A stretch of 64,000 bases of DNA from Candidatus Wolframiiraptor gerlachensis (GTDB taxonomy: Archaea > Thermoproteota > Nitrososphaeria_A > Caldarchaeales > Wolframiiraptoraceae). Positions within the stretch are counted from its first letter, which is position 1. Each line of letters opens with the position of its first letter. This document shows, piece by piece, positions 496-64,000 of the stretch. The DNA lies in contig JAJPCT020000026.1 in the NCBI GenBank assembly GCA_021323375.2, positions 1-64,000 on the forward strand. Direction: 5' to 3'. The notes beneath the pieces were generated by a model. It was not told where the DNA came from. It did not search any database and saw only the letters and a program-made list of their open reading frames with translations. The translations under genes were made by a program, and so were the position numbers.

Positions 496-1860
496 CTAAT
501 AGAGATATTTGTCTTTCCACATCTCCACCTCTTGGACTGAGCGCTTTACGTCGCTGAAGAGCTTGACTGCCTTCTCCACATCCTCGGGTGTAATCTCCTC
601 CCTCCCATTTTCTCGAGCTATTATCTGGCTTGGCGTCAGGAGCTGGACAGCATATCGGAGTGTTGATTGCTCTCCTATGTCGGTGAGCTTTTCTAGGGCT
701 TCTGGGCTTAGCTTGACCCTTTCCTCGGCTGCTCGGATCTCTAGGATCTTCTTGATCTCATCCCTTGTATACGGCCTCGTCGTGATTATCAGCATTTTAT
801 CGAGGAGGTCGAGTGGGATGCCGTGCGGGGAGACCATATCCGTCCCCCTTATCCTTGTCATGCCCCTATTTGTGGCGAGGATTATTATCGGCGCGAGCTC
901 GCTCTCCATCGCGGCATTCAGGAACGAGAACGCCTCGATATCCAAGAGATGAACCTCGTCTATGAACAATACGCCCGGTATTATCTCGGCGGTTCCCTCC
1001 TCAACCCTCTTCTTCACCATCTCATCCACCTCTCTCCTAATCTCGTTGTCTATCTCCTTGGTTGGCGGCGCGCCGAGAAGGAGGCTGAATAGCCCACCAC
1101 TCCTAGACTGCGCACTGATCTGATCTAGGTCATGGAGCGTGAGGACATAGATGAACTCCTTCTCCTTCTCAACCGGCCCTCCCGGCCTAGGCACAGGCCT
1201 CTCATCCACAGTGGCTAGGTCATATTTCTCGGCAGCCTCCTCCGATCCTCCAATCCTCGTAACCCTGCCCGTCTCCGCGTCAATCGTTATTACATCCCCG
1301 ACGGTAATTCCCTGCGACAATATGTAGGAGGCTATGGTTGCTCCAGCCCTGAAAATTCTCCGATCATCCCTAGTCGCGAGGCCTATGACGACGTGATCCG
1401 GGATCTCCTGATACGGGTTATAGGGATGCCTCCGTGTCTTCACCTCGAGCTGAATAACCTCACCCTCGTAAACCCTCCTCTTCTCCCTCAACCTGACACC
1501 TATCGCCTTCCTCATCGCCTGAGTCAGGATCTCCGTCTTCTTCAGCTCCGAGGAATAGATCTCGGAGCCGCTAAGGGTTACAAATGGTACATCCCTGCCG
1601 AGCTCCCGGGCTATAGCGCATGCTATCGCCGTCTTTCCCGTTCCAGGCGGGCCGGCGAAGAGGACGGCCCTTCCAGCCATCTTACCCTCCCTGATCATCC
1701 GGACTATGATGCCTGCGGCCTCCCTGGCCTCAACCTGCCCCACGAGTCCTCCCCCAACAGGCTTTGCCTTAAGCCCCTCAAGCCCGAGCCCCTTAATGTG
1801 GCTATGCGCTCCCACCCTTAGAAATCTCTCTCCAGAGTAGCCTGTTATATCCTCGAGCAT
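496..1860 (-). CDS. tip49: TIP49/RuvB-like AAA+ ATPase (TBP-interacting protein)
   Basis: AHSHIKGLGL N-terminus, Walker A GPPGTGKT, Walker B LFIDEVH, SPHGIPLDLLD. Confidence 0.95.
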   Translation of the reverse strand: MLEDITGYSGERFLRVGAHSHIKGLGLEGLKAKPVGGGLVGQVEAREAAGIIVRMIREGKMAGRAVLFAGPPGTGKTAIACAIARELGRDVPFVTLSGSEIYSSELKKTEILTQAMRKAIGVRLREKRRVYEGEVIQLEVKTRRHPYNPYQEIPDHVVIGLATRDDRRIFRAGATIASYILSQGITVGDVITIDAETGRVTRIGGSEEAAEKYDLATVDERPVPRPGGPVEKEKEFIYVLTLHDLDQISAQSRSGGLFSLLLGAPPTKEIDNEIRREVDEMVKKRVEEGTAEIIPGVLFIDEVHLLDIEAFSFLNAAMESELAPIIILATNRGMTRIRGTDMVSPHGIPLDLLDKMLIITTRPYTRDEIKKILEIRAAEERVKLSPEALEKLTDIGEQSTLRYAVQLLTPSQIIARENGREEITPEDVEKAVKLFSDVKRSVQEVEMWKDKYLY

Positions 1861-59837: not shown

Positions 59838-61333
<1,496 letters not shown>

Positions 61334-61529
61334 CGCCGCACTGGGGTGCCGCTTCCAGGCGGGGTTTTACGGGGCCCGCGTAAGACCTAGGCGTGATCAT
61401 GTGCTTAGGTCCCCATCTCTGTGGCTGGCGGAGGAGGCCGCCACACATGGGCGGGCCGGGTCAGCGGCCCGAGGGCGTTTCGTGGGCGGCACCGCCGTCG
61501 CCGCCAGCCAATAGTATGTGTGGTGCCTC

Positions 61530-61613: not shown

Positions 61614-62944
61614 ATGTCTTTACCTCATTCTGGAGGATGTTTCAGTGATAATTCTGGCCGCTGGTATTGGGAGTAGGCTTAAGCCCTTTCCGGGGCCTCC
61701 CCAAGTGCTTGATGGAGCTCAGAGCCTGGGGTAAGATATTCTCGATTTTATCCTCGAGAGAGGGTTAGGCGAGCCGGCCTAGGAGGATCATCGTGGTCAC
61801 TAGGCGTGAATTCTCGCATTCTATTCGAGCGAGGCTCCTAACGATGTTGAGCTTGTAGAGTTGGATCCTGATCGCTTTGAGAATCTTTATAGCCTCTGGG
61901 CGGCTGTGGGCAGGGTTGATGGGAGCTTTCTGGTCTTAATGTCAGATCATATCTTCGAGTATGAGCTGTTGAAAAGGTCTTGAGTGAGGCGGTTAAGGCG
62001 CGGGAAGCGTTCATGCTATGTCTGGATAGGGAGCCCTCGGTTATCGAGGCTGAGGAGGAAGCATGAAGCTGATGCTGTTGAATGGGAGAGTGGTCGAGGC
62101 TGATAAGTCCTTAAGCCCCTCTACAGGATCGATACAGGATCATCTATTGTAATCCCATGCTAGGAAGTATATCGAGGGGGCTTATCAGGTTAAGGAGGCT
62201 CGAAGGCGGCGATAAAGGATGCGTTGAACCTCGCTGCCGCCGAGAATCAAGTGGGTTTGTTGATGTTACTGGGCTGCTTTGGAAGGATGTGGATACACTC
62301 AGGATCTTGAGAAGGCGAGGAAGCTACTGGCGGATATAGGAAGGGGCTTACGAGACCGAGTGATGGGCTTGTATCACGATATCTCAATAGGCAGATCTCA
62401 TCAAGGGACTCGATATCACTCTGTAGGCCGGAGGCTATATCAATCAAACATCATATCCATAATCTCATTCCTGATTTGTGTTTGCGGAGCCATTTTCTCG
62501 CCCTCCAAAGCTTTCTCATGGGCGGCCTGCTGATCCAAGCATCATCAATAGTTGATGGCGTGGATGGCAGAGCTTACCAAGGCTCTTTAGGAGGGGTATC
62601 GAGCTTCGGGGCATACTGGACTCTTTTCTGAATAGGCTGGCGATCTCTCCGTGATAATGGGGCTTATTATCGCGCCATGACCCTCGACCAGATCATCGGC
62701 ATCATCTCAATTCTCGCATCAGCAAACATAATCCTAGTGAGCTACCTAACCCATCCCCTCCAAAGGAAGCCCGGAATCGATATATCACAGATCGGTTTCA
62801 TTCCGGTTCACGCGTGATGTTAGGCTCTTTCATGGTATTCTTAGCCGCTATTCTCGGGATGCCTCTCATCGCGTTGCTTTACGTAGCTTTATCCCCTAGC
62901 ATACTATACGGCTGGCCTGATCTTAGCCGCCCGTATCAGATTAG
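61614..62944 (+). pseudogene. Multiply frameshifted bifunctional NTP-transferase / CDP-alcohol phosphotransferase (IPCT/DIPPS-like)
   Basis: Motifs in successive frames: VIILAAGIGSRLKP, PKCLMEL, MSDHIFE, WKDVDT, DGLVSRYLNRQIS, QASSIVDGVDG, then a SSFGAY..DS-like motif. Confidence 0.75.
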
Positions 62945-63613
62945 CCGGGTCGCGCCCCGTTGTTATTGGGGAAGAGCCCTGGCCTAGGATATTGCATCCA
63001 ATAGACCCTGTAAAGGGGCTGTGCCAGCTCATTGGAAGAATGAACTTGAAGCTGATCCTGACCGCTGTAATCCTCTCGGGTTGATTATTTGATCTCTGCT
63101 TGATTTCCGGTTCTTGGGAGTTAATGGAAAGCTCCTGCTCCATAGGCACATCATATTAATCTTGGAGGCCGCTCTGTTATCGGCTTCAGCTATATGATAA
63201 TCTCTTCGATGAAGAGGCTTTTAGACCTTATCACGGTAAGGCTTGTAAGTAGGATTGGACAGCCAAGGAGCCCTTAGAAGGATCTTTATCGACCTTCTAT
63301 GCGACTCTCGGCTTAATAGCTTAGCGTGCTATTCATGTGAGCTTCGCATCTATACCCCGATTGGGGGTCTCGTCTCAAAGATAGTGATGGCGGCAGGCCG
63401 CCATACTCTTCCCTCACAACAATATACAGGCTCAGGAGAAGAACATACAGGACATTCGCCGAGGTTTATGAGAAGATTTGTAGAGAATCTTGCTAGAAGG
63501 CTTGCTCAGTGAGTAGAAGCTTCCCACTTGGATAAATACCGTTTAAATCCCTGAGTATGACTGGGCGTGTGGGTTTGGAAAGCCTTATTCGCCCCCAATG
63601 AATACAATCTAGC

Positions 63614-63817
63614 GAGGCTGGCCGGAACAGGGACGCGCCCATAGAAGGAGGCTGCCGGGGTGCCCGGAAAGCCGTCCTCATGGAGCACCACATGCCGGCC
63701 CGTGAGCGCCGCGTAACTGAAGAGCTACGGTGCGGTGTGGCTGAAGGGGCGTCCCACCTCGGGGAAAAGCTCACGCGGTGGGATGCTCACAAGCCACGCG
63801 CCTCCGAGGCCAGCCTC
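63614..63817 (+). ncRNA. Unassigned highly structured ncRNA candidate (~204 nt)
   Basis: 10-bp terminal stem GAGGCTGGCC/GGCCAGCCTC, three internal multi-stem arms, loop-loop complement CGTGAGC/GCTCACG, promoter-like GAAAGCCTTATT 25-30 nt upstream, T-rich tract downstream. Confidence 0.65.
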
Positions 63818-64000
63818 CAGCATATTTTCTTATCTGTTGAAGGCTTGGGCAGAGGTCGCTCACATTCTCGGTACTTTCTCGGGCTAAGCCCTGCAACAAC
63901 CTCCTAGAGGTCGACGTTTATCACGTAGATCGCGTGTAGCCTCATCTTCGAGGCTTCTCGACTGCGATCTCGGGCGTCCTATAGTAGTATTGGTCGCAGA

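Follow-up and report, generated by a model that had tools for sequence, protein, structure and literature searches.

The stretch of DNA analysed here ("the window") covers 64,000 nucleotides, positions 1 to 64,000 of contig JAJPCT020000026.1, from the archaeon Candidatus Wolframiiraptor gerlachensis (assembly GCA_021323375.2), a member of the order Caldarchaeales. Near its end, on the plus strand, lies a GC-rich island (63614–63817) that a first-pass annotation, made from the letters alone, described as a structured RNA of archaea, with a transcript of its own and possibly undescribed so far. That description is supported by a promoter-like box, by covariation, by contigs from RNA libraries, and by the lack of a match in Rfam. 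On our analysis, the island contains a stand-alone noncoding RNA (ncRNA) gene of Caldarchaeales (Aigarchaeota-type) archaea, which live in hot springs, in a damaged copy. The gene almost certainly represents a real, new structured-RNA family. Its RNA is very probably matured to a circle, with the paired ends of the transcript forming a motif known as bulge-helix-bulge (BHB), at which they are removed. For the core claim as a whole, i.e., a real new structured-RNA family that is matured to a circle via a BHB motif, we estimate a probability of about three in four.

The GC content of the island is 65%, against ~46–48% in its flanks. Folded as the plus strand, the island has a minimum free energy (MFE) of −114.4 kcal/mol (z = −4.49), a value that none of 200 shuffled sequences equals; the minus strand has an MFE of −108.8 kcal/mol (z = −3.35). 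Covariance models always score the plus strand above the minus strand (e.g., 203 vs 43 bits). Every feature listed in the first-pass annotation is present in the window at its coordinates, with two of them needing qualification. The 10-bp closing stem (63614–63623 with 63808–63817) can be formed, but its tenth pair is unique to the window copy, because one base is missing there. Similarly, arm 2 is present, but its inner hairpin, CGGC[..]GCCG, is found only in the window copy; homologues have CCGC-tetraloop-GCGG instead. Arm 1 (63639–63683) and arm 3 (63738–63796, with a 12-bp stem and an 18-nt loop) stand as first drawn, as does the complementarity between loops 63701–63707 and 63769–63775, which also covaries. 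The elements of the gene, all on the plus strand, are as follows.

63578–63590 (+): BRE/TATA-like (B recognition element/TATA) candidate promoter box GAAAGCCTTATTC, ~25–35 nt upstream of the first paired base
63614–63622 (+): outer BHB helix, 5′ strand, pairing with 63809–63817; RNA contigs stop within it
63623–63626 (+): central BHB helix, 5′ strand CGGA, pairing with UCCG 63803–63806
63627–63629 (+): BHB bulge 1, 3 nt, with the predicted 5′ cut at 63628/63629
63629–63808 (+): segment giving the predicted circular RNA, 180 nt here and 192 nt in the intact copy
63630–63638 (+): helix P2, 5′ strand, with its partner at 63797–63805 in the predicted mature fold
63639–63683 (+): arm 1, a hairpin with a conserved GGGG-NNNG-CC apex
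63686–63737 (+): arm 2, a long stem, a pseudoknot strand and a small tetraloop hairpin; damaged here
63701–63707 (+): pseudoknot strand 1, CGUGAGC, pairing with 63769–63775
63738–63796 (+): arm 3, a 5-bp base, a conserved internal loop, a 12-bp stem and an 18-nt loop
63769–63775 (+): second pseudoknot strand, GCUCACG, part of the arm 3 loop
63803–63808 (+): central BHB helix, 3′ strand UCCG (63803–63806), and bulge 2 (63807–63808)
63809–63817 (+): outer BHB helix, 3′ strand, pairing with 63614–63622
63823–63831 (+): terminator-like T-rich tract TATTTTCTT, reading TAT(T/C)T(T/C) in 12 of 12 genus sequences

We refer to the genus of the window as g1, to its family, which comprises g1 to g5, as f1, and to a genus of another family as g14; further genera and families are numbered in the same way. 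In BLAST searches, the gene matches 10 of the 13 other genomes of the genus and none of 27 genomes of other genera. A covariance model (R1) gives full-length matches in 25 of the 35 family genomes and in four of the five genera (g1, 12/13; g4, 3/3; g5, 5/8; g3, 4/7; g2, 0/3). A second model (R2), built from 25 sequences, detects the RNA in 32 of the 76 genomes of the order, including 7/8 in g5, 7/7 in g3, and two weak full-length matches in g14. With search filters off, R2 detects a ~185-nt form beside a protein gene, described below, in all three g6 loci and in the sole g8 genome that has the protein. Further matches occur in one g9 genome (34 bits), in one genome of another family (61 bits) and, weakly, in yet another family (21 bits). 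A pattern scan across the genomes of 185,579 species returned 74 stretches, 21 of which are confirmed by R2. These 21 are archaeal metagenome-assembled genomes titled Nitrososphaeria, Aigarchaeota or Thaumarchaeota, and include Ca. Wolframiiraptor and Ca. Terraquivivens. The other 53 stretches come nearly all from bacterial records, and none of them matches R2.

The homologues are conserved and covary, with pairing kept by compensatory changes. Across 12 genus sequences, and with the loop-loop helix included, 96.1% of the alignment cells are paired, and both partners have changed in 25 of 72 pairs; none of 500 shuffles reaches this covariation, and slid controls give 3–10. In 25 homologues drawn from four genera, pairing holds in 94% of cells, and compensatory changes occur in 51 of 65 pairs, vs 15–22 in slid controls. 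By helix, the pairs that change on both sides are 7/9 in the outer BHB helix (25 homologues); 2/4 and 4/4 in the two P2 helices and 5/5, 2/2 and 2/6 in the helices of arm 1 (family alignment); 10/10 of the basal pairs of arm 2; and 4/5 and 9/12 in arm 3. As an example from P2, the pair G26-C209 becomes A-U in two genus members. Arms 1 and 3 fold alike in all 12 genus sequences. Within the genus, 98.8% of cells in the pseudoknot pair and two of its seven pairs are compensatory; both strands have changed in one member, and G-U pairs preserve the helix in three. Across three genera, the pseudoknot comprises 7–13 complementary nucleotides in nine sequence versions among 16 sequences, these being the usable rows out of the 32 given to the script, which picked the wrong hairpin in g3 and in divergent groups. 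The internal loop of arm 3 (63747–63752 with 63789–63795) is purine-rich, with invariant bases and CUGAAG opposite CUC-RYA-RG. Judged by eye, it resembles loop-E or sarcin-ricin motifs.

Candidate transcription signals flank the folded region on both sides. The promoter-like box, read by the first-pass annotation as GAAAGCCTTATT at 63578–63589, and the T-run at 63823–63831 are both conserved in position. The box keeps its position and sequence in 11 of 11 readable same-genus sequences, one more being N-masked, and AAAGCTTA-type boxes precede related RNAs in other families. To judge from the letters, the box at 63578–63590 would act as a promoter, and the T-rich tract would end transcription. 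In genome G003 (loci L007 and L022), the stretch directly upstream of the RNA gene reads as N.

The paired ends of the RNA have the layout of a BHB motif. Passages of PMC4090602 describe this motif as two 3-nt bulges, at which splicing takes place, on either side of a 4-bp helix. In the RNA studied here, an outer helix leads into a 4-bp CGGA/UCCG helix with a 3-nt bulge on each strand, followed by an inner helix. RNAalifold had proposed the same pairing. By script, the canonical motif is found in the intact copy of the gene and in 24 of 32 homologues. The central helix covaries, occurring as CGGA/UCCG, CGGA/UUCG, CAGG/CCUG, CGGG/UCCG and CGGG/CCCG, and as CGGC/GCCG in g9. The predicted circles measure 184–194 nt in the family, 153–160 nt in g6 and g8, and 177 nt in g14. 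Genes for two subunits of the splicing endonuclease (PF01974; 94 and 79 bits) and for the ligase RtcB (PF01139; 581 bits) are present in the genome.

Evidence for the circle itself comes from assembled contigs of two metatranscriptome runs, both from one study, which were compared with the intact copy (locus L012) together with contigs of two DNA runs. The RNA-library contigs are 90–99% alike to the intact copy and thus come from a close relative. They cover the gene at high depth: word depth on the RNA segment reaches ~19,700, vs 43 on a 1746-nt contig over the neighbouring gene. DNA contigs span the whole 401-nt stretch, whereas the cover by RNA-library contigs is confined to L012 1534–1724, the start of which is homologous to 63629 in the window. 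Each border lies directly behind the second nucleotide of a bulge, which is the canonical EndA site in the geometry of tRNA introns. One 222-nt contig (X19) contains a head-to-tail joint from 1724 to 1534, i.e., it goes back 191, with one letter between. Cover that is limited to the segment between the predicted cut sites, together with this joint, indicates that the mature RNA is probably a circle of ~192 nt, and the closing stem is probably a BHB processing stem that is removed on maturation.

A linear, stable ncRNA of ~204–213 nt that keeps its closing stem is an alternative reading, with the joint being an assembly artefact or a minor by-product. The closing stem is long and covarying, contigs cannot prove ends, and the joint is found in one contig of one study. 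Nevertheless, we consider a linear RNA unlikely, for three reasons: (i) RNA contig cover stops exactly at both predicted BHB cut sites, where DNA contigs run on; (ii) loose ends at both borders (X20) read the opposite end of the RNA; (iii) the canonical motif recurs in most homologues, and the predicted junction always gives a GNRA-capped helix. Specifically, in all 24 homologues with a canonical BHB, the ligated junction reads YCC-G-A-R|A-GGR, in which UCC can re-pair with the second GGAG to give a helix capped by a G-A-R-A loop (GNRA). This alternative pairing of UCC would explain the invariance of both strands of what would otherwise be an "internal loop". The refolding of UCC after ligation is suggested by these sequences.

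Several observations weigh against a covarying RNA that is circularised through a BHB, and temper our confidence in it. Pair counts are inflated in two of the alignments (A4 and A7), which had been fitted to the model, such that the count from the 25-sequence alignment leans towards the structure. In g5, the central helix begins with an A.G mismatch in seven sequences; one g14 sequence has an outer helix of only 3 bp; and the window copy, with a bulge 2 of 2 nt, fails a strict BHB test. The evidence for the circle consists of assembled contigs from two runs of one study, from a relative that is 90–99% similar; DNA can occur in RNA libraries, and contigs show neither strand nor ends. As for the relaxed forms of the motif, which are those of the seven g5 sequences and of locus L047, passages of PMC4090602 describe the two-subunit splicing endonuclease as lenient towards relaxed motifs.

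The RNA corresponds to no known family in our searches. A scan of the whole window at Rfam gathering thresholds returned only archaeal 16S rRNA, and a scan of 63400–64000 at E ≤ 10 returned only two junk hits, with E > 5. For the intact copy and four homologues (15.7 kb in total), a scan against 4227 families at E ≤ 1 gave no match, not even a partial one. The absence of a confident Rfam match at the locus is consistent with the novelty proposed in the first-pass annotation. RNase P RNA (RF00373) was rejected as the identity of the RNA: there is no match at the locus, and the genome's RNase P RNA lies on contig C16 (141 bits). RF02357 (RNaseP-T) gave no match, and the control matched nowhere either. 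The RNA of the signal recognition particle (SRP; RF01857) was also rejected, with no match at E ≤ 10 or E ≤ 1 and a full-length match on contig C25 (91 bits, just under the cut-off). By eye, K-turn, C/D, H/ACA, loop-E and tetraloop-receptor motifs show no consistent conserved match. The loop of the small hairpin in arm 2 swaps between GNRA and UNCG among genera, which speaks against a tetraloop-receptor role.

These results also bear on the idea that the RNA is a circularly permuted or highly divergent housekeeping RNA, the function of which is restored by circularisation. Its high abundance would fit, and PMC4731332 reports the same route, a BHB followed by a circle, for the SRP RNA of Thermoproteus. 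However, this genome has its SRP and RNase P RNAs elsewhere, and the 4227 Rfam families give no partial local matches at E ≤ 1, in swapped order or otherwise, when searched with unrotated sequences. We regard a permuted or divergent housekeeping RNA as very unlikely.

The 16S rRNA gene lies at 59838–61333 on the minus strand (1196 bits). The 64-kb window contains no match to 23S rRNA, so the rRNA genes seem to be unlinked here. A stretch of 70% GC at 61300–61500, just upstream of the 16S rRNA gene, may be its processing stem.

The window holds a poor copy of the RNA gene. In the same assembly, contig C11 carries a second copy that is 91% identical by BLAST; this is the intact copy, L012, and the window contig is C26. 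The duplication extends beyond the RNA. A blastn comparison with C11 shows that the window from 62098 to 64000, and the contig on to position 65340, is an indel-ridden duplicate, 92–94% identical over 3.3 kb, in which 91 gap openings stand against 79 mismatches. The genes flanking the RNA are all frameshifted into short frames in the window and intact on C11. There, the RNA gene has three protein genes as neighbours: one for a product of at least 474 aa, a convergent one for 235 aa, and one for a methyltransferase-like protein of 260 aa. The first product, read off the end of the locus, has a nucleotidyltransferase-like stretch and a hydrophobic C-terminal half; it is putatively of the inositol-phosphate cytidylyltransferase/DIPP-synthase type. 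The gene of the convergent protein survives in the window contig as frameshifted remnants on the minus strand, at 63859–64000 and on to 64366. These are three fragments with internal stops, scoring 172, 23 and 20 bits against the protein profile.

Bases are also missing from the RNA gene itself at several places in the window: 2 nt close to its 5′ end, 3 nt from the arm 1 apex, ~7 nt from the CCGC-GYAA-GCGG hairpin in arm 2, and 1 nt from the 3′ bulge. Consequently, arm 2 folds weakly in the window copy, at −15.8 kcal/mol compared with about −33 kcal/mol in all others, because ~7 nt of its hairpin are lost. Bulge 2 has 2 nt instead of the 3 nt of the intact copy, which appears as a one-base gap in the alignment; by homology, the 3′ cut is predicted after 63808. 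The window and intact copies score 157 vs 224 bits with R1 and 111 vs 186 bits with R2. Many gaps beside few mismatches are what errors of long-read sequencing or of assembly would leave, as would heavy decay. The window copy is probably a non-functional or assembly-error-laden duplicate, with the intact gene on C11, and it is unsuited as the reference sequence for the RNA family.

Two copies in one assembly, and an RNA that is circular and highly structured, could also point to a mobile, selfish or viroid-like element, or to a miniature inverted-repeat transposable element (MITE). We regard this as extremely improbable. The second copy is part of a larger duplication, at least 3.3 kb long, in which the flanking genes are repeated as well; elsewhere there is one forward-strand match per genome, in a conserved place beside the same gene. 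With no dispersed copies and a single copy in relatives, a MITE was rejected as a candidate.

The gene beside which the RNA is found encodes the convergent protein mentioned above. The RNA and protein genes are convergent in 31 of 31 f1 and g14 genomes in which both are found. Their spacing ranges from ~20 nt of overlap to ~110 nt apart, with gaps of 10–110 nt in genera other than g1. Other neighbours of the RNA gene differ between genera; the gene for this ~210–235-aa protein is constant. In genome G004, the contig ends just at the RNA, so that a protein gene in its usual place would fall outside it. Neither RNA nor protein is found in g2 (3/3 genomes) or in genomes G021, G009 and G064. The 61-bit RNA of another family follows the protein gene downstream and shares its direction, and the 21-bit match of a further family is again convergent with it. 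In L012, a g1 locus, the partner frame (863–1570, plus strand) continues without a stop into the RNA gene, which is on the opposite strand, and covers ~46 nt of its 3′ end. In f4, a single genome, G051 (1/18), has both protein and RNA, at locus L155 on a 3.1-kb contig; the RNA is of the g6 type, and this contig may be a binning error.

Given this arrangement, the RNA could instead be a cis-acting or antisense element for the convergent gene, e.g., a shared terminator or a 3′-end control. In g1, the two genes meet at their 3′ ends or share up to ~20 nt there, which would fit such a function. We consider it highly improbable, since the genes do not overlap in genera other than g1, are co-directional in the one genome with the RNA downstream, and are unlinked in g9. 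In addition, the RNA has an elaborate conserved fold and its own promoter box, and is far more abundant than the mRNA contig of its neighbour.

All named records of the protein are hypothetical proteins. It has no Pfam or NCBIfam family match, with a weak match to the YraN profile (E = 0.008). Twelve protein sequences are 42–63% identical and share many invariant polar residues, among them D78, E91, E93 and K116, candidates for catalytic residues of the D...(D/E)xK type. An AlphaFold2 (AF2) model of the protein has a predicted local distance difference test score (pLDDT) of 90.8, and Foldseek searches with this model return PD-(D/E)XK folds (4g6v at E = 5.7e-4, others ranging to 2e-3). The informative structural matches are all of the PD-(D/E)XK type: XisH, AF1548, CdiA-CT, NucS, SfsA and restriction enzymes. 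The core of the model (residues ~44–200) superposes on XisH (2okf, 2inb), AF1548 (1y88) and the CdiA-CT tRNase (4g6v), with VIA Z scores of 8.1, 7.4 and 6.1; the root-mean-square deviation (rmsd) for XisH is 3.0 over 114 aa. The structural scores are modest, with template-modelling (TM) scores of 0.23–0.33 and Z of 6–8.1, and the protein differs from these structures by its 12–19% identity, an added N-terminal helical hairpin and a C-terminal extension. Judging from the model, the protein plausibly has a PD-(D/E)XK nuclease-like core. Its profile retrieves 238 cluster representatives among 1.84 billion proteins.

On balance, we lean slightly towards the view that the RNA and its neighbour protein work as partners. 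The following observations pull the other way. The basis for a partnership is genomic, i.e., gene adjacency and shared presence or absence. In g9, RNA and protein are on different contigs, and the RNA (34 bits) lies between unrelated genes. The protein is encoded in all three g7 genomes, with no RNA in the two searched, a search in which the control genome G025 was also missed; because the whole-genome covariance-model search, which is insensitive to divergent members, missed this positive control, "no RNA" is a weak result for g7, g2 and f4. Of 401 genomes sampled across the phylum, 178 encode the protein, nearly always as a single copy, and 26 of 38 loci inspected outside the order have no RNA-like element beside it; these 26 include five f5 (Nitrosopumilaceae-like), four f21 and one f16 loci.

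These 38 loci, chosen around the protein gene in other families, do contain RNA-like elements of two types. The four-way RNA type is found in two of them, L165 and L195. Ten others have a GC-rich element of ~105–230 nt with a TATA-like box, a long outer helix and often a T-run, in which the BHB has a central helix RAGC/GCUU and the bulge ARA. The families concerned are f15, f19, f22, f23, f45 (two genomes), f47, f53, f55 and f46; the element of the last is less similar. Most of these elements fold as long rods, and the predicted ligation would close the second end of the rod. None has a match in Rfam. Their positions are as follows, with "rod-type" used as the name for all ten.

L169, ~752–895: rod-type element
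L171, 2245–2473: rod-type element
L172, 752–909: rod-type element
L177, 2123–2300: rod-type element
L182, 2168–2330: rod-type element
L187, 989–1139: rod-type element
L188, 2204–2346: rod-type element
L190, 1002–1130: rod-type element
L192, 1105–1255: rod-type element
L196, 1617–1765: rod-type element

A BHB finder that requires an outer helix of at least 6 bp is not specific, giving 177 matches vs 124 in a block shuffle; with at least 10 bp, it gives nine matches in the 38 loci vs one to five in five shuffles. Because the finder alone is not specific, the case for the rods rests on the RAGC/GCUU-ARA motif, the GC content and the TATA boxes. Locus L184 has a weak match to R2 (14.5 bits, E = 0.03). 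We tentatively entertain a broader scheme, about which we are more doubtful than confident: the circle and the PD-(D/E)XK-fold protein may form an unrecognised ribonucleoprotein that is widespread in Thermoproteota. The RNA would always be circularised through a BHB and would have diverged in shape, forming a pseudoknotted four-way junction in Caldarchaeales and, in at least nine other families, a covalently closed rod of ~105–200 nt. It would regulate, scaffold or target a nuclease.

Within the Caldarchaeales, these observations suggest the following pathway. A precursor of ~215–225 nt would be transcribed from its own BRE/TATA-like promoter and end at the T-run. Its ends pair into an extended helix-bulge-helix-bulge-helix motif (hBHBh′), with an outer helix of 8–9 bp, the 4-bp CGGA/UCCG helix and a 3-nt bulge on each strand, as structure and covariation show. 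Cuts would fall after the second nucleotide of each bulge, to judge at assembly level from the RNA-library contigs of the close relative, and the inner ~192 nt would be joined head to tail. EndA, with two subunits, and RtcB are the likely enzymes, the genes for both being present. After ligation, UCC would leave the central helix and pair with the second GGAG, such that P2 is GNRA-capped across the junction. Covariation shows the final fold to be a four-way junction of P2 and three arms, with a 7-bp pseudoknot between arm 2 and the loop of arm 3. From adjacency and co-occurrence, the circle may work with the neighbour gene product, a PD-(D/E)XK nuclease-like protein of ~215–235 aa; the likeliest role of the RNA would be that of a stable scaffold or regulator of this protein.

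A close precedent is the SRP RNA of Thermoproteus, which is reported in PMC4731332 (Plagens et al. 2015, eLife) to be permuted and processed through a BHB into a circle. In both cases, a stand-alone gene gives a BHB transcript that is cut by endonuclease and ligated into a structured circle. However, the Thermoproteus RNA belongs to a known family, of which it is a permuted form, and circularisation restores its known fold; the RNA described here matches no family, its gene is not evidently permuted, and SRP RNA is encoded elsewhere. The circles of tRNA introns and of pre-16S/23S rRNA, as portrayed in parts of PMC4090602 and PMC3326292, share the BHB geometry, the implied enzymes and the circular product. 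They are by-products or intermediates, whereas the circle here is a conserved, abundant product, and the discarded exons are only short transcript ends.

Circular ncRNAs have also been found in Sulfolobus and Pyrococcus, including C/D box sRNAs and others of unknown function, according to passages of PMC3326292 (Danan et al. 2012). The RNA described here likewise appears to be a circular ncRNA of a hyperthermophile, and those passages propose stabilisation at high temperature as the benefit of being circular. No C/D or H/ACA family matches our RNA, which sets it apart from the circular C/D sRNAs. The latter are reportedly 50–70 nt long, lack a BHB and are circularised by another ligase. A different kind of parallel is offered by orphan, large structured ncRNAs of bacteria with dedicated partner genes, such as OLE RNA with OapA, which resemble our RNA in having a complex covarying fold, high abundance and a conserved neighbour gene taken as the partner. 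They are linear and much larger, and their partners are membrane proteins. A literature search that left supplementary files aside found no description of the RNA reported here. What appears to be new is the combination of a dedicated gene, an abundant circle as its product, an unmatched fold, and a protein gene as constant neighbour.

Circles made by tRNA splicing in archaea are known mainly as introns, as rRNA intermediates and, in one case, as a permuted SRP RNA. In the RNA family described here, the GNRA cap is a structural element that seems to be supplied by the ligation junction itself. If the pairing of RNA and protein is functional, it would provide a lead on a hypothetical protein found across the phylum, and a new class of circular RNA that would be directly testable in a cultivable lineage.

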